From Candidatus Heimdallarchaeota archaeon (GTDB lineage: Archaea; Asgardarchaeota; Heimdallarchaeia; Hodarchaeales; Hodarchaeaceae): DNA of 14,844 nt. The stretch covers positions 1 through 14,844 of the forward strand of contig JBHLSH010000088.1 of the NCBI GenBank assembly GCA_048881705.1. Reading direction: 5' to 3'. This document shows, in pieces, positions 3,014 to 14,844 of the stretch. The translations under genes and the position numbers were made by a program. The stretch's first letter is position 1, and every line of letters starts with the position of its first letter. The notes under the pieces were generated by a model that did no database searches, had not been told where the DNA came from, and saw only the letters and a program-made list of their open reading frames with translations.

Positions 3014-4147
3014 TTAGGCGAATAATGCTATTATGGAATCCCAGGTAAATATGCCTAGGATCAATCCACCGAGAACACTCAGTAGGAGACACCCCATGCC
3101 TCCAAATATCGGAAGAGGAAGTCCAGGTAAAGCCCGTTCTTCTTCTAAAAACTTAAAAGTATAATAGGCCCCAACAAACAATCCCACAAGGGTCGCAAGA
3201 AGCGGAAAAAAGTTGGCCAGCCCACTACTGATAACGACCACAGCGCTCGCAAGCATGCTAAAAAAAGCGAAATCCCCCAGTCCAATGTTTATAAGTGGAG
3301 TGGAATAGACAGGCAACGCTGGAAGCAGGGGCACTTTCTCATACCTGATCCCATTCTCTTCAAGGAACTGCATTTGTTCTTCTACTTCTGCAGCAGTTTG
3401 ACGTCCGTGATCAATAATGCCTTTCAAGGGCCCACGGAACACCGCGTAGATATCATAGATGGCCAATCCTATCAAGATGAGAAATACCGTAAGCAATCCA
3501 AGATGAATAGCAAGCATCGAACCCAGCATAGCTCCAAAAAACACCATCATTCCATTCCGCACCCAGATACGGTCAAAGGTCTGAATCCCGAATGAAACCA
3601 TTCCTAATAATCCTAAGATAAGTGCAAAGACGTACATTAGCATCTCAATGACAAAAATTTCTTGTGTTCCAACTAGAATCTTCCACGCTAAAAAATCGTT
3701 AATTCCAGCTTGGATAGCGGTGGGAAGCCACAACCAAATGAGATCTAATCCCTCGAACAGGACAACATAGCCATAAAACAGCCCAAAAACAAACCAGGAA
3801 AAGCCCATCATCGCGGCAAAAAAATAGACGAGGAGCTGGACTAGCCCTTTCCTGATTATGATCAAGACCAGAATTCCTCCAAGGAATGCCACGCCCACAT
3901 AGAAGAGCATGTTGAGGAGTGCCCCTTGTGCAATGCCGCCTACTGGATCATCAGGATTTTCTGGAATGGGAGAAATGTCAGGAGGTGCTTGCTGTATCCC
4001 CTGATAGAAATTCAGGGTCATAACGGAGAATACGATCGCTAGCAATATTACAGCGATGATGGGTAGAATAAACGCCCGAAGCTTGGCGCGTGAATCAATG
4101 TTAGTGGGAATTGGTGCAGAGGAAGTTTCAGCCGTCTCAGTACTCAT
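3014..4147 (-). CDS. Presenilin-family (peptidase A22) GxGD intramembrane aspartyl protease
   Basis: Catalytic YD (Y231-D232, 'IYDIYAVFRGPLK'), GLGD (289-292, 'IGLGDFAFFSML'), PAL-equivalent 'ALPGLP' (339-344), and about 9 TM segments. Confidence 0.95.
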   Translation of the reverse strand: MSTETAETSSAPIPTNIDSRAKLRAFILPIIAVILLAIVFSVMTLNFYQGIQQAPPDISPIPENPDDPVGGIAQGALLNMLFYVGVAFLGGILVLIIIRKGLVQLLVYFFAAMMGFSWFVFGLFYGYVVLFEGLDLIWLWLPTAIQAGINDFLAWKILVGTQEIFVIEMLMYVFALILGLLGMVSFGIQTFDRIWVRNGMMVFFGAMLGSMLAIHLGLLTVFLILIGLAIYDIYAVFRGPLKGIIDHGRQTAAEVEEQMQFLEENGIRYEKVPLLPALPVYSTPLINIGLGDFAFFSMLASAVVVISSGLANFFPLLATLVGLFVGAYYTFKFLEEERALPGLPLPIFGGMGCLLLSVLGGLILGIFTWDSIIALFA

Positions 4148-5235: not shown

Positions 5236-5306
5236 TGCGCCGACCGGGACTCGAACCCGGGCCACCAGTGTGGCAGACTGGAGTCCTACCACTAGACTAT
5301 CGGCGC
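5236..5306 (-). tRNA. tRNA-Gly(GCC), intron-less, 71 nt, CCA not encoded
   Basis: Full cloverleaf: GCGCCGA/TCGGCGC acceptor, GTCT/GGAC D-stem, CCAGT-CTGCCAC-ACTGG anticodon arm, CCGGG-TTCGAGT-CCCGG T-arm, discriminator A. Confidence 0.98.
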
Positions 5307-6189: not shown

Positions 6190-6355
6190 TGCGGGGGAGG
6201 GGATTTGAACCCCCGGACTTCTATAAGACTGGATCGCTTATATATGGCTATTAAGCCAACAGATCTTAAGTCCAGCGCCTTTGGTCGGCGCCTTGTGATA
6301 ACATAGAGTTATCATCTAGCCCTGATATCCTTTGACCTGGCTTGGCTACCCCCGC
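6190..6355 (-). tRNA. tRNA-Leu(TAA) with two introns: D-loop 21/22 (6331-6281, 51 nt) and canonical 37/38 (6264-6235, 30 nt); mature 85 nt, type II variable arm
   Basis: Removing both inserts gives GCGGGGGTAGCCAAGCCAGGTCAAAGGCGCTGGACTTAAGATCCAGTCTTATAGAAGTCCGGGGGTTCAAATCCCCTCCCCCGCA. The central helices GGTC/GACC and CTTA/TAAG are each flanked by 3-nt bulges. Confidence 0.93.
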
Positions 6356-8015: not shown

Positions 8016-8954
8016 CTAAGCACTGGGCAAGCGCTCAATCGCTTTACTAAGAAGGGGAATCACACTAACAATCGTCATCCCATCAAAATTTGTTTTGATA
8101 CTGTCTGAGGTAATCGCCAAACGTGGTTTGGATTCTAATATCCGCTTAAGCCTTTCAGCCGTGTGTACAGGGTGTGTATAAAGGAAATAGATATCCATTG
8201 CCCCTTTTTCTCTGAGAAGTTCTGCGGCTCCTATCATAGTTCCCCCTGAGCTTACTAGATCATCAACAATCACGACAGGATGCCCTTCCACGGGGACATC
8301 AATTCCCATAAATGTCTGAGTAATTATTCCTGTTTCACGGTCTCGCTTTTTCTTCAAAGCTCCAAAATAGGGGGATCCAAGACCCTGGGCGGCCTCTTTG
8401 GCCAATAATAGCGCGCCTTCGTCAGGTGAGAAACATAGTGCCTCCTCAGGCGAGCCCAATTGTGATTTCAGTGCTCGAGCTAAAGTAGGAATGGCTGATA
8501 ACCCCACTGCATACGAACTGGAGAAAAAGTGGTCGAGTTCGATCTTTCCATATGAATGCGAATTGATTGTGATGAAATAATCTATCCCTGCGGCCTCTAA
8601 AGTTTGACCCAGATAACGACTGGAAAACGGCTCTCCACCACGGAATTCTGTGTCCTGACGGGAATATATATGATATGGCATAATGCAGGTAAGTTTTGCA
8701 GGTTGATAACGTTTCACATTGTAGAGTGTCCAGAGTAAAGAGACCAAGTATTGGTTGGCACATTGACCCTGTTCTAATTGTAGAGCCACAACTGCATGAG
8801 TATCTTTGAGTAAACTAGCATCGGGTATCAATATTCGGGGACATACCTCTCCGTCAGGAAAGATACGCTCTTCAAGTTGGAAAAATCTCGCTGATGAGAT
8901 TTCTTCTGCTATTTTACCTGCGAACGTCTCCTGTCCAATAATAACCTTTTTCAA
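8016..8954 (-). CDS. prs: Ribose-phosphate pyrophosphokinase (PRPP synthetase), archaeal type; TTG start
   Basis: 'FPDGE', 'MPYHIYSRQD', 'SPDEGA', 'KKRD', PRTase loop 'VDDLVSSGGTM', and 'THPV'. A GAGGAG SD lies at 8971-8966. Confidence 0.95.
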   Translation of the reverse strand: MKKVIIGQETFAGKIAEEISSARFFQLEERIFPDGEVCPRILIPDASLLKDTHAVVALQLEQGQCANQYLVSLLWTLYNVKRYQPAKLTCIMPYHIYSRQDTEFRGGEPFSSRYLGQTLEAAGIDYFITINSHSYGKIELDHFFSSSYAVGLSAIPTLARALKSQLGSPEEALCFSPDEGALLLAKEAAQGLGSPYFGALKKKRDRETGIITQTFMGIDVPVEGHPVVIVDDLVSSGGTMIGAAELLREKGAMDIYFLYTHPVHTAERLKRILESKPRLAITSDSIKTNFDGMTIVSVIPLLSKAIERLPSA

Positions 8955-10491: not shown

Positions 10492-11172
10492 TTGGCGCTA
10501 CATCCTCCAGCTGTCCATTTTCCCATTGGAGCTTGGTTTGTTACCACTCTCACGCTTTTGATGGCACTCTGGATCAATTTTTTCCAAAAAAGAGGTATTA
10601 TTGATTTCGAAAGCCGGTTTGGCGAAAATATTGTATCTCGACTCGATTTTGTGGCGCATGTGTGTGGAATAATTGGACTAGTTGGAGTCTTGCCAGCAAC
10701 ATACCTCGGACTTATCGATGCATCCGGAATCATTAATCCTAATCCATTGGATATTAATACCGTATTACTAGGGTTAACCAATAGTTTTCAAGATGACCTT
10801 CTAACGATTAAGGTAATAGGAGCTCTTGTGGGAATGCAATTATTTATCATAGCAGGAGCCTTACGGTTCATTGTCGTAACGGTCAACCATGCCGACATAT
10901 ATGAAGCGAGGACCCTCATCCAAGTTCTCTATGGAGGTTCTACATTCATTGGATTTGGAGTCATTCTTTTGGTTGGAGCTGTAGGGGGTATAATTGTGTA
11001 CGACGAATCTCTGCTTGAAACATTACCATTCATAGATGTCTTGATCTACGAAGCAGAGATCACCTTAATACCTATTCTAATGATTATTGCGATTGTTTTT
11101 ACGTTTATGTTAATTATTTCGGTCTTTCTTTTCAAACAGGGAAGAGATGCCATTAATAAGACGACTGAATAG
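10492..11172 (+). CDS. DUF2231-like membrane protein (about 5 TM); TTG start
   Basis: N-terminal 'LHPPAVHFPIG' and later 'GAVGGIIVY' match the DUF2231 pattern (HP..VHFP ... GG.LVY). A GGAG lies upstream at 10477-10480. Confidence 0.7.
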   Translation: MALHPPAVHFPIGAWFVTTLTLLMALWINFFQKRGIIDFESRFGENIVSRLDFVAHVCGIIGLVGVLPATYLGLIDASGIINPNPLDINTVLLGLTNSFQDDLLTIKVIGALVGMQLFIIAGALRFIVVTVNHADIYEARTLIQVLYGGSTFIGFGVILLVGAVGGIIVYDESLLETLPFIDVLIYEAEITLIPILMIIAIVFTFMLIISVFLFKQGRDAINKTTE

Positions 11173-11662: not shown

Positions 11663-13345
11663 TTGGCCGCCTCTCAGCCTTTCTGTTCCGAATTCATACA
11701 TTCTTTGTGTCAAAATAATGGTTCTTACGATCATGAGTCAGAGATCTTCGCTGTTTTTAAAAGGACTTTATTAAGTCACAGCAAGCTATTTATTATTTCA
11801 GCTCAATCTCAGTGCTATTTGGAAACTTCGGAGAGAAGTGAGGTGGTTTGGCTAAGAGAGACACACAAAAAGCTTCTCCAAACGGTCATAGATCAGCTTC
11901 CCCCATATATCGAACGCTATTCTCTGGAAGAACAAGAATTATTAACTGCGTTCTTTGAGACTTTGAAGTACTATGAGGAAGCGGACTCCCAACGTGAGAG
12001 GCTTTCAAAGCGGTTTCTAGACTATAATCGCCAGTATTACCAGACTCGAATATATCTAAAATATCCGTTTCTGTGGTTTTCGATTGCCTATTTTGCCACT
12101 GCAAACCTTATGATTTCGCTAGCTAAGTACGATGGCAGGAGTTTTTATGCCTATTTAGCTAGACCCTTCAGACGACATTCCCAGTCCGAAGGGGGGTTTT
12201 TACTTGTTAAGAATCAAACTCCCCTCGAATCCCAATTATGGGAACAGCTCCAAATAATTTGTGCTAGAATTGAGTTAAACCTTACAGAAGCACAATTACT
12301 AGTTTTAAAGAATGTCTATCAGACCATTAAAGAGCGTGGCATCCATTCATTACATTCGCGGCAGCTAAAGAAGCAGATCACTACAGACACTCATTCGTTT
12401 CCAATGATGCGGGAACTGGCCAATTTCTTCAAATTACTTGGGTCTAAATGGGATTTGTGGTTTTATGCGCCAGCTTTTGACTTGAAATATCTCTACTTTC
12501 ATCTTAAACTTGCAGAAAACACGCCTTTAACGAAAATCATTGATTTCCAAAACCCTAAAAATCGAACTCTTTGTGCGAGCCGAATCCATCGTGTTCCAGA
12601 CCGAGAAAATGAATACTCAGGATATTTGGTCATCCCTGAGCCCTTCCTTGAGGATCTCAAAGGGTTCTTGGCATATAATAAACATATTCGCAGAGTAGTT
12701 AAGCTGGAAATGGACGAGATTCTTACCGAGCGGGTCTCGTTCTCCTTAGCTCGCTATTCGCCAGGCAAGGGGTGGCAAGAGCGTTCCCCTCCTAGTTCCA
12801 TCGCTCAGGACTATAATCGCTATATTACGCCTGAATTCAATCAAACCTGGCATTACACGCAGTTTTCTGATCCGCTGGCCCTTATCCAGTTCTTCTGTCG
12901 GCACAAGGCGATCTATTATTTTGAAGACCTACCTTTGGATCCAGTACCCGTAAAACGCCAAACCCGTGAAACTGTCAAACAAGCCGCAGATGAAAGAGGT
13001 TTGCTGAAATTTTTATTTGAGAAAAAGGTATGCGTGCTTGCGTTTGACTCACCACGACTACATTACCTATATTCCCCCTATTTATTCGAGGTACGATTAC
13101 CCGTCTCTTCTTTAGATGCTCTTAACCAAATAGTTTCTGGACTGCCCTTTGTTCGAATATTTTTCGCGGAGGAACAGCTTTTTCTCTGGGCGTTTTTGAC
13201 TGCGAAAGATGTCGAGAGCCTCGAAACAGAATATAATTGTCAGATTCAACATGTAATTTCCTACCACTATCCGCAGAGGCTGCAATTTTTGTGGTATGAT
13301 TCAAGGAAATTTACTTGGCATCCCCCTAGTATCTTAACAAGTTAA
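11663..13345 (+). CDS. Hypothetical soluble protein, 560 aa; possibly divergent tandem wHTH/Lrp-AsnC-like modules
   Basis: A 1.68-kb open frame is unlikely by chance. The domain guess comes from 'LTEAQLLVLKNV' and paired Y-x(5-6)-W motifs. The start is uncertain. Confidence 0.7.
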   Translation: MAASQPFCSEFIHSLCQNNGSYDHESEIFAVFKRTLLSHSKLFIISAQSQCYLETSERSEVVWLRETHKKLLQTVIDQLPPYIERYSLEEQELLTAFFETLKYYEEADSQRERLSKRFLDYNRQYYQTRIYLKYPFLWFSIAYFATANLMISLAKYDGRSFYAYLARPFRRHSQSEGGFLLVKNQTPLESQLWEQLQIICARIELNLTEAQLLVLKNVYQTIKERGIHSLHSRQLKKQITTDTHSFPMMRELANFFKLLGSKWDLWFYAPAFDLKYLYFHLKLAENTPLTKIIDFQNPKNRTLCASRIHRVPDRENEYSGYLVIPEPFLEDLKGFLAYNKHIRRVVKLEMDEILTERVSFSLARYSPGKGWQERSPPSSIAQDYNRYITPEFNQTWHYTQFSDPLALIQFFCRHKAIYYFEDLPLDPVPVKRQTRETVKQAADERGLLKFLFEKKVCVLAFDSPRLHYLYSPYLFEVRLPVSSLDALNQIVSGLPFVRIFFAEEQLFLWAFLTAKDVESLETEYNCQIQHVISYHYPQRLQFLWYDSRKFTWHPPSILTS

Positions 13346-14101: not shown

Positions 14102-14205
14102 CGGGCGCAGAGGGACTTTCACTGTGCAATCGAAATTGCCACAGCTTTGAACCCCCGACCAATGGGTTAAAAGCCCATCGCTCTACCTAGCTGAGCTATG
14201 CGCCC
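14102..14205 (-). tRNA. tRNA-Lys(TTT) with a T-loop intron at 59/60 (14145-14116, 30 nt); mature 74 nt
   Basis: GGGCGCA/TGCGCCC acceptor and ATGGG-CTTTTAA-CCCAT anticodon arm. Strict BHB: TTCA/TGAA central helix with bulges AA|G and AG|T; intron hairpin CTGT-G-GCAAT(TTCG)ATTGC-ACAG. Splicing restores the T-loop TTCAAAT. Confidence 0.95.
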
Positions 14206-14231
14206 TGGACGTCTTCCACTGCTAGAAATGT

Positions 14232-14379
14232 TGGCGCCCCGAGCGGGAGTTTCAGATCGAGTGAAAAACTCAAATCTTTTGAACCCGCGTCGGATGGGCT
14301 CTGTAGGCCGTCGAAAAGACAATATTAACGAAATGCCTTTGACAGCCATCAATGCTAGACCGGACTACACCATCGGGGC
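14232..14379 (-). tRNA. tRNA-Asp(GTC) with two introns: canonical 37/38 (14339-14299, 41 nt) and T-loop 59/60 (14277-14249, 29 nt); CCA encoded
   Basis: GCCCCGA/TCGGGGC acceptor followed by G-CCA. BHB 1: CTGT/ACAG, bulges CA|A and AG|C, flank AGGC/GCCT. BHB 2: TTCA/TGAA, bulges AA|A and AC|T, flank GAT/ATC. Mature length 75 nt plus CCA. Confidence 0.95.
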
Positions 14380-14532
14380 TCATATTCAACAAATCGTCTT
14401 TATTAGAGGCAATAATTCAGAGAAGATCTCCTTTTGGGACTGAATTTCGCAGATATATTAATTTTCTTCGTATTCTATGAATTTCAAAAGCGGTTAAGAG
14501 GATGGGAAGGCAAGATCAATAAAAATAGTGAA

Positions 14533-14635
14533 TGCTCCGACCGGGATTTGAACCCGGGTATCCTCCTTCACATCAAATCAGTGAAGTCTTAGGGGTGAGA
14601 GCCCTAAATGATGGGCCAAGCTACACTATCGGAGC
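14533..14635 (-). tRNA. tRNA-Glu(CTC) with a variable-loop intron at 45/46 (14587-14560, 28 nt); mature 75 nt
   Basis: GCTCCGA/TCGGAGC acceptor and TAGGG-CTCTCAC-CCCTA anticodon arm. The insert has a CTTCAC/GTGAAG stem. Relaxed BHB: CCTA/GAGG (3 of 4 pairs) with bulges AG|A and AT|A. Removal restores a 4-nt AGAC variable loop. The exact junction is set by the BHB cleavage rule. Confidence 0.9.
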
Positions 14636-14668
14636 ATGACATATCTAGGAGTCATATTGTCAGTGGAG

Positions 14669-14828
14669 TGCTGGGAGGGGGATTTGAACCCCCGACTTCG
14701 GGATTTCTCCTCTGTTGCGCATATATTGCCCTATAAATTGTATGAGAATAGATCTCAGATTATGAGTCCCGCGCTATAGGCGCAAACTCGACCAAACCAG
14801 GTGCTATACCAGGCTAAGCCACCCCAGC
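14669..14828 (-). tRNA. Elongator tRNA-Met(CAT) with two introns: D-arm 22/23 (14805-14776, 30 nt) and canonical 37/38 (14760-14705, 56 nt); mature 74 nt
   Basis: GCTGGGG/TCCCAGC acceptor with G1-C72, so not the initiator. Spliced anticodon arm CGGGA-CTCATAA-TCCCG. BHBs: TGGT/GCCT with AT|A bulges and GCA/TGC flank; CTCA/GGAG with TA|A and AA|A bulges and TCTG/CAGA flank. Elongator Met rather than Ile2 is inferred from the acceptor stem. Confidence 0.9.
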
Positions 14829-14844
14829 GTCACGAGATGACTCA

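Follow-up and report, generated by a model that had tools for sequence, protein, structure and literature searches.

The 14,844-base contig analyzed here (C88, which as a whole is the window referred to below) belongs to a Hodarchaeota genome bin of 3.96 Mb and 155 contigs (G000) and carries, close to one end, a cluster of four tRNA genes of which every one is interrupted. The genes for tRNA-Met(CAU), tRNA-Glu(CUC), tRNA-Asp(GUC) and tRNA-Lys(UUU) lie in tandem on the minus strand (14828..14102), separated by spacers of 33, 153 and 26 nt (the encoded CCA of tRNA-Asp being counted as part of its gene), and hold six insertions, at positions 22/23, 37/38 (twice), 45/46 and 59/60 (twice), four of them at non-canonical sites. 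The evidence set out below, all of it drawn from genes and genomes, makes it very probable that these are the working, and apparently the only, genes for the elongator tRNA-Met(CAU), tRNA-Glu(CUC), tRNA-Asp(GUC) and tRNA-Lys(UUU) of this archaeon, each with one or two short introns that would be spliced by proteins. The identity of the four tRNAs, the boundaries of their insertions, the conservation of the splice motifs and the presence of the enzyme genes can be read directly from this genome and its relatives.

Every boundary was scored by the bulge-helix-bulge (BHB) rule, in which each strand of a 4-bp central helix (H) runs into a bulge of 3 nt, cleaved between bases 2 and 3, the flanks being formed by the exon helix (h) on one side and the intron helix (h') on the other. 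The genes and introns of the cluster are as follows.

14828..14669, minus strand: tRNA-Met(CAU), elongator type; exons 14828..14806, 14775..14761 and 14704..14669; 74 nt when spliced
14805..14776, minus strand: Met intron 1, 30 nt, D loop, position 22/23; relaxed BHB
14760..14705, minus strand: Met intron 2, 56 nt, canonical position 37/38; relaxed BHB
14635..14533, minus strand: tRNA-Glu(CUC); exons 14635..14588 and 14559..14533; 75 nt when spliced
14587..14560, minus strand: Glu intron, 28 nt, variable loop, position 45/46, junction AG|AC; relaxed HBh'
14379..14232, minus strand: tRNA-Asp(GUC); exons 14379..14340, 14298..14278 and 14248..14235; 75 nt when spliced (plus CCA)
14339..14299, minus strand: Asp intron 1, 41 nt, canonical position 37/38; strict hBHBh'
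14277..14249, minus strand: Asp intron 2, 29 nt, T loop, position 59/60; strict hBHBh'
14205..14102, minus strand: tRNA-Lys(UUU); exons 14205..14146 and 14115..14102; 74 nt when spliced
14145..14116, minus strand: Lys intron, 30 nt, T loop, position 59/60; strict hBHBh'

Cutting out the insertions turned all four genes into canonical cloverleaves (ARAGORN scores of 120.2 for Met-CAU, 122.9 for Glu-CUC, 120.7 for Asp-GUC and 124.6 for Lys-UUU). Unspliced, the Met gene matched the Rfam tRNA model with 40.7 bits, around two large insertions, and the Glu gene with 48 bits. The gene order, strand, spacers and six insertion sites given in the preliminary description of this DNA are all borne out in the sequence. 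Its statement that introns occur in all four tRNA arms holds for the D, anticodon, variable and T loops but not for the acceptor arm, which is uninterrupted. G000 encodes three tRNAs with a CAU anticodon: that on contig C15 has the marks of an initiator (A1:U72 and G29-31:C39-41) and that on C73 is nearest to tRNA-Ile(GAU) and looks like tRNA-Ile2, so that the gene in the window would be the one for elongator tRNA-Met. A group I or group II intron or a mobile element was considered for the insertions and ruled out by their size (28-56 nt) and by the Rfam search of the cluster region, which returned only matches to the tRNA family. The CCA of tRNA-Asp is genomically encoded (14234..14232), directly 5' of the short Asp-Lys spacer, as it is in 10 of 12 orthologs; tRNA-Met, tRNA-Glu and tRNA-Lys have no encoded CCA.

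Insertion boundaries and splice motifs in orthologous loci

As a check of the boundaries that is independent of the BHB motif, the predicted mature tRNAs were aligned, with splicing allowed, to related loci. DNA searches found the whole cluster in genome G001 at 95% identity, and the Met-Glu and Asp-Lys pairs in twelve further genomes of the same genus. Across the 13 genomes of the genus the exons are identical in 67-75 of 74-75 bases, and each of the non-canonical insertions is exactly absent from some species, where the remaining sequence is the predicted spliced tRNA of G000. Nine Glu orthologs without the 45/46 intron have a variable loop of 4 nt reading AGAC, CGAC or UGAC (AGAC in G006), which fixes the 3' cut and thereby an intron of 28 nt with the junction AG|AC; unrelated introns occupy the same site in G005 and G011, that of G005 having a perfect UAGG strand. 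The Asp 59/60 intron is missing from 7 of 12 orthologs (G006, G011, G016, G007, G012, G008 and G013), whose T loop is intact, and in Asp and Lys orthologs without a T-loop insertion the loop reads UUCAAAU. The set of introns in a given gene varies widely within the genus. For tRNA-Met the number ranges from one (G006) to four (G016, G007, G012, G008 and G013), while tRNA-Lys(UUU) has its intron at 59/60 in G000, G001 and G011, at 37/38 instead in nine species, at both sites in G005 and at neither in two genomes of a sister family, in which the gene is free of introns.

The significance of the motifs in G000 was estimated from 20,000 shuffled introns and from 45-87 alternative placements in the same tRNA (99 moved placements for Met 22/23). 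The Asp 37/38 intron has a strict hBHBh' motif (CUGU/ACAG, H 4/4, h 5, h' 4), the score of which was reached by 10 of the 20,000 shuffles. Both 59/60 introns pair UUCA with UGAA (H 4/4) and use the T stem as exon helix (h 5), with h' 4 in tRNA-Asp and h' 5 in tRNA-Lys, and their scores were reached by 3 and 5 of the 20,000 shuffles, respectively; none of the 45-87 alternative placements scored as high as any of these three strict motifs. In the Met 37/38 intron, CUCA is paired with GGAG (H 3/4 with an A35.G mismatch, h 5, h' 4; 66/20,000 shuffles), and in the Glu 45/46 intron CCUA, at positions 40-43, is paired with GAGG (H 3/4, h 0, 6-bp h'; 92/20,000 shuffles). The latter takes one side of its central helix from the 3' half of the anticodon stem, and the precursor fold must therefore differ from that of the mature tRNA. 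The description of the six insertions as BHB introns thus holds in its strict form for Asp 37/38, Asp 59/60 and Lys 59/60, whereas Met 37/38, Glu 45/46 and Met 22/23 (discussed below) are only relaxed; for these three we placed the weight on the orthologs and not on the motif.

The structure was then compared among orthologous introns, with the register set by tRNA numbering and the first four h' pairs scored against the same partner slid by 1-3 bases. The 26 distinct 59/60 introns formed 86/104 of these pairs, against 41-50/104 when slid; the corresponding values were 36/44 and 9-17/44 for the Asp 37/38 introns, 49/56 and 16-32/56 for the Met 37/38 introns, and 12/12 and 3-7/12 for the Glu 45/46 introns. 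Several types of base pair occur at each h' position, and the pairing is kept even though the intron sequences are unrelated. In their motif scores and in this retention of structure, the insertions behave as archaeal BHB-type tRNA introns, least clearly so at Met 22/23.

The age of the genus was gauged from the PRPP synthase encoded in the window (8016-8954), the protein of which is 77% identical to that of G001 and 47-57% identical to those of other members. The genus is thus deep, and the intron turnover within it spans long evolutionary times. In the PRPP synthase tree the clades (G000, G001), (G004, G020, G014, G002), (G009, G012, G007, G008) and (G017, G010) are supported, and the sampled members of each have their introns at the same sites; the base of the genus lacks support in this single-gene tree, which therefore gives no basis for gain or loss calls. 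In ten genomes of the genus, only a few kb separate the PRPP synthase gene from the Met-Glu and Asp-Lys pairs. These pairs diverge from each other in most of the genomes examined and are tandem in G000, G001 and G006; in G000 and G001 they are ~5 kb from the PRPP synthase gene, with MFS transporter genes between.

Splicing machinery and status of the genes

The genome encodes exactly two EndA homologs, PF01974 and PF02778 both matching an open reading frame (ORF) of 182 aa on C28 and one of 213 aa on C27, and nothing else in G000. For the 182-aa protein, a match to the catalytic EndA subunit (alpha) of Aeropyrum pernix (3P1Z_B, E 1e-41) runs without gaps through the Crenarchaea-specific loop (CSL). 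Its K39 falls opposite K44 in the specificity loop and the catalytic Tyr, His and Lys are retained; FAVYKRGPGIDHSPF and SVRKRY are conserved when the protein is aligned with 3P1Z_B and with 3AJV_B, a His-to-Ala mutant. The 213-aa paralog is without the catalytic His and is closest to the non-catalytic EndA-like unit of Methanopyrus kandleri (5X89, E 2e-22), its match to the A. pernix beta subunit having an E value of 0.006. A gene for RtcB is present on C24. To judge from these two subunit genes, the EndA of G000 is of the heteromeric (alpha beta)2 type with an L1 loop, and broad specificity is predicted for it. The preliminary description had named a heteromeric EndA of broad specificity as the background of such intron density, and the finding of two paralogs, one with the loop lysine and one lacking the His, agrees with it.

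We propose that transcription yields precursors, probably one for Met-Glu and another for Asp-Lys, since the two genes of either pair are neighbours in all relatives, and that each intron would fold with its flanking exon into a BHB motif. At 59/60, half of the motif would come from the T stem and the T-loop bases 54-57, and at 37/38 from the anticodon stem and loop; at Glu 45/46 the motif would borrow bases 40-43, so that the anticodon stem would have to open first. The (alpha beta)2 EndA, with its L1/CSL loop, would cleave every 3-nt bulge 3' of its second base, and RtcB would ligate the exons. As a promoter for the Asp-Lys pair, a TATA-like TAATAAAG located 19-26 nt upstream of the Asp gene in G000 was considered and set aside, as G001 does not share it. 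Bases 14768-14844, the final 77 of the window, recur as positions 1-77 of C55; these contigs thus abut, and the promoter region of tRNA-Met lies on C55.

BLAST of the mature sequences against the whole 3.96-Mb assembly found no intron-less copies of the four tRNAs, a possibility to which the preliminary description had drawn attention; the only relatives in G000 were tRNA-Glu(UUC) on C79 and tRNA-Lys(CUU) on C42, both of them interrupted too. Some points nevertheless weigh against the view that the cluster consists of working, spliced genes, in addition to those concerning the D-loop intron of tRNA-Met that are taken up in the next paragraph. Cleavage, ligation, the order of intron removal and the transcription units are deduced from genes, and the assembly is 90.9% complete, so that an unassembled intron-less copy may exist. 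Energy models, moreover, disfavour the 4-bp central helices (pair probability 0-0.05 for the 59/60 introns and 0 for Met and Asp 37/38). Low thermodynamic support is usual for a motif that needs a protein to hold its shape, and thermodynamic folding of the precursors was used as evidence neither way. Taken further, the first two points, with the fact that tRNA genes are often left unassembled, would allow the cluster to be read as decaying pseudogenes or unspliced relics, with the working tRNAs encoded in the ~9% of the genome that is unassembled. We consider this highly unlikely, given that G000 and G001 are identical in 300/301 exon bases (99.7%), compared with 203/214 in introns and 188/212 (88.7%) in spacers, and that the exons are near-invariant across a genus in which PRPP synthase shares only 47-57% protein identity. 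All stems are paired, with compensatory changes within the tRNAs, and the interrupted genes are the only copies found at the loci of relatives, including the closed genomes G007 and G016, just as a second copy is absent from the G000 assembly. If the contig had been wrongly binned and came from another lineage rich in introns, for example Thermoproteales, its assignment to the Asgard archaea would be mistaken; this reading is compatible with an estimated bin contamination of 7.5%, but is hardly credible in view of the cluster in G001 at 95% identity and the orthologous tRNA pairs in 13 genomes of the genus. The PRPP synthase gene stands on the same contig as the tRNA genes in G005, G006, G007, G008, G010, G011, G012, G013, G014 and G016, as it does in the window, and the window protein groups with the genus in the tree, its other named relatives found being Heimdall/Hodarchaeota records only. 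Moreover, the 921-base PRPP synthase gene of G020, which GTDB places in the same genus, shows 100% identity to that of 'Candidatus Hodarchaeota archaeon isolate YT2_065', and Hodarchaeota is in NCBI a phylum within the Asgard kingdom Promethearchaeati. The earlier supposition that this is an Asgard genome is thus upheld by the PRPP synthase matches and by the identity of G020 with YT2_065.

For the D-loop insertion of tRNA-Met (14805..14776), removal at 22/23 through a BHB motif has to be weighed against a cut in the 25/26 register (UAUA/UAUA), the use of an alternative motif, processing as a bulge-helix-loop substrate, and retention of the insertion as an enlarged D loop. The score of the 22/23 motif of G000 (UGGU/GCCU; H 3/4, h 1, h' 3) is at chance level, being reached by 1732 of 20,000 shuffles (8.7%) and 9 of 99 moved placements, and the cut register is ambiguous in this genome, as it falls inside a repeated UAUAGC. 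The h' helix is unsupported across orthologs, with 13/28 cells, equal to the slid controls, and D-arm insertions often are without canonical motifs (Goswami et al., 2026 preprint, 10.64898/2026.10.13.758758); in its features this intron looks like a substrate of the bulge-helix-loop type. An alternative BHB in tRNA-Met (window 14783-14814, GCUU[AG|C]...GAGU[UU|G]) has H 4/4 and h 5, the latter built from acceptor and D-stem bases, and its spliced product also scores 120.2 in ARAGORN. The orthologs, however, argue for 22/23. The D-loop intron is absent in G006, G014, G002, G004, G011 and G021, where the D arm equals that of the spliced G000 gene, GCUUAGCCUGGUAUAGCG, which is the product of any cut within the repeat but not of the alternative motif; the predicted D loop of the mature tRNA after removal at 22/23 is AGCCUGGUA. 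In the other intron-bearing orthologs the repeat shrinks to AUA, which limits the cut to 20/21-23/24, and within this range the BHB rule gives 22/23. The central helix UGGU/GCCG, finally, is kept in 27/28 cells, and the GCCG strand, with 4/4 pairs, is found in six of the seven distinct orthologous introns. On balance, it seems unlikely that the insertion is not removed at 22/23 by way of a BHB motif. The alternative motif we judge to be a probable product of chance, because ~1-2 motifs that strong are expected per gene (our own estimate, from 0.375^9 over the ~16000 placements scanned); its use would delete G18 and G19 and give a D loop found in no ortholog, and it may compete for the fold of the precursor.

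The long tRNA-Met intron and other features of the window

The 37/38 intron of tRNA-Met is unusually long (49-62 nt) and is carried by all 15 orthologs, including one from a sister family. Within the genus it has conserved internal blocks, namely a UGAGA/UCUCA hairpin, AAGGGCAA and YGCGC, the last of which is able to pair with exon bases 24-28; both sides of this pairing are changed in G005 (exon G28 to A, intron C to U). The consensus fold comprises the BHB and one small hairpin only, and covariation is almost nil. A C/D-box guide within the intron was considered and rejected, as Rfam gave no match to the intron and the C-box-like GAUGAG at its 3' end can be put down to pairing potential with the CUCAU anticodon loop, to which it is complementary. 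The intron might be more than a spacer, either by ordering the removal of the other introns through the fold of the precursor or by persisting as a functional circular RNA, but we regard such a role as improbable. The other long intron of the genome, of 57 nt and likewise at 37/38, is that of tRNA-Tyr(GUA) (G000 C69:12149-12279).

Two further tRNA genes lie in the window.

6355..6190, minus strand: tRNA-Leu(UAA), with two introns: D loop, 51 nt (6331..6281), and position 37/38, 30 nt (6264..6235)
5306..5236: tRNA-Gly(GCC), compact, without intron

The window as a whole therefore has eight introns in five of its six tRNA genes, five of the eight being non-canonical, and the two introns of tRNA-Leu(UAA) and the compact tRNA-Gly(GCC) bear out the same count made previously. 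The 37/38 intron of tRNA-Leu is strict, while its D-loop intron has a central helix GGUC/GACC with an AA|A bulge on either side and no exon helix.

It had also been anticipated that default tRNA finders would miss or mis-call several of these genes, and this was the case with both ARAGORN and the Rfam tRNA model. Run on the window with default settings, ARAGORN reported only tRNA-Gly and a truncated tRNA-Lys; with introns allowed, it called the Met gene tRNA-Ala(GGC) and placed the Glu intron wrongly. The Rfam model missed tRNA-Asp entirely and truncated tRNA-Lys, and tRNA-Leu(UAA) was reported by neither.

Elsewhere in the window, a 377-aa ORF on the minus strand (3014-4147) matches the Pfam family Presenilin (PF01080, E 1.4e-10), while for two plus-strand ORFs, at 10492-11172 (226 aa) and 11663-13345 (560 aa), Pfam gave no match at E 0.001.

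Genome-wide census and comparison with known systems

The tRNA genes of G000 were surveyed by a search for acceptor-stem and T-arm seeds followed by combinatorial removal of introns, which gives a partial census and a lower bound. It resolved 39 distinct tRNA genes, of which 25 (~64%) are interrupted, with ~38 introns or ~1 per gene; four loci were resolved wrongly (including the window Leu gene and a probable Arg-CCG) and one, a 221-nt candidate on the minus strand of C59, gave no solution when as many as four BHB introns were allowed. At 1.5 introns per gene, the cluster lies slightly above the genome average. The seed search replaced a SPLITS-like approach, in which genome-wide removal of strict BHB motifs was combined with ARAGORN and from 123,224 candidate motifs recovered about a dozen genes; so few were recovered because most interrupted genes hold a second or a relaxed intron.

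Heavily interrupted tRNA genes with multiple introns are already documented in Asgard archaea, and the novelty implied by the preliminary description is not borne out. Valentin-Alvarado et al. (2024, PMC11291895) found introns in 92-95% of the tRNA genes of three Atabeyarchaeia/Freyarchaeia genomes, often multiple and non-canonical. A census of 90 Asgard genomes (Goswami et al., 2026) gave 2.2 intervening sequences per gene in its focal families (Freyr-/Atabeyarchaeia), where 97% of the genes are interrupted, and 0.91 per gene in other Asgard families, with a maximum of five in one gene; the T and D arms stood out as hot spots, introns had been gained repeatedly, and most genomes encoded an (alpha beta)2 EndA. 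Kaneta et al. (2018, PMC5829648) had already described this type of EndA, with an L1 loop, in Asgard archaea. The cluster shares with these interrupted Asgard tRNAs the short introns (a median of 22-23 nt in the census, 28-56 nt here), the many non-canonical sites, with the T and D arms as hot spots, multiple introns per gene, recurrent gain and loss, weak D-arm motifs missed by annotators and the (alpha beta)2 EndA. With ~1 intron per gene and ~64% of the genes interrupted, G000 differs from the focal families (2.2 and 97%) and fits the 0.91 of the others. Neither PMC11291895 nor the preprint 10.64898/2026.10.13.758758 mentions Hodarchaeota by name in its main text.

In Thermoproteales (Sugahara et al., 2007, 2008; Fujishima et al., 2010; PMC4033280), as here, BHB and relaxed introns occur in the D, anticodon, variable and T regions, genes can hold several introns, and splicing relies, in G000 by prediction, on a heteromeric EndA bearing the CSL. 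The two differ in that like introns recur across tRNA species in Thermoproteales, indicating transposition (PMC4033280), whereas G000 has no such sign: an all-against-all comparison of 29 intron bodies for copying between tRNA genes gave a best score of 20, compared with shuffled maxima of 15-22. With the EndA of A. pernix (3P1Z, 3AJV), that of G000 has in common two paralogous subunits of ~180-210 aa, with Tyr, His and Lys in alpha and a beta without the His; it differs in that its beta subunit is by sequence nearer to the M. kandleri unit. To judge from their likeness to solved structures, the two subunits would probably assemble into a heterotetramer and cleave relaxed motifs.

The cluster is thus a well-supported further example of a pattern already described in Asgard archaea, from which no departure is seen, and the finding leaves the known splicing mechanism unchanged. 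To the catalogue of interrupted Asgard tRNA genes it adds a documented case from the Hodarchaeota with boundaries based on orthologs. Some phylogenies reportedly put the Hodarchaeales closest to eukaryotes. As the four isoacceptors of the cluster and tRNA-Leu are missed or miscalled by ARAGORN and Rfam, automated annotation would give an incomplete tRNA set for this genome. The gain and loss of introns is an open question according to Goswami et al. (2026), for the study of which the differing intron sets of the same gene within one deep genus make a usable series.

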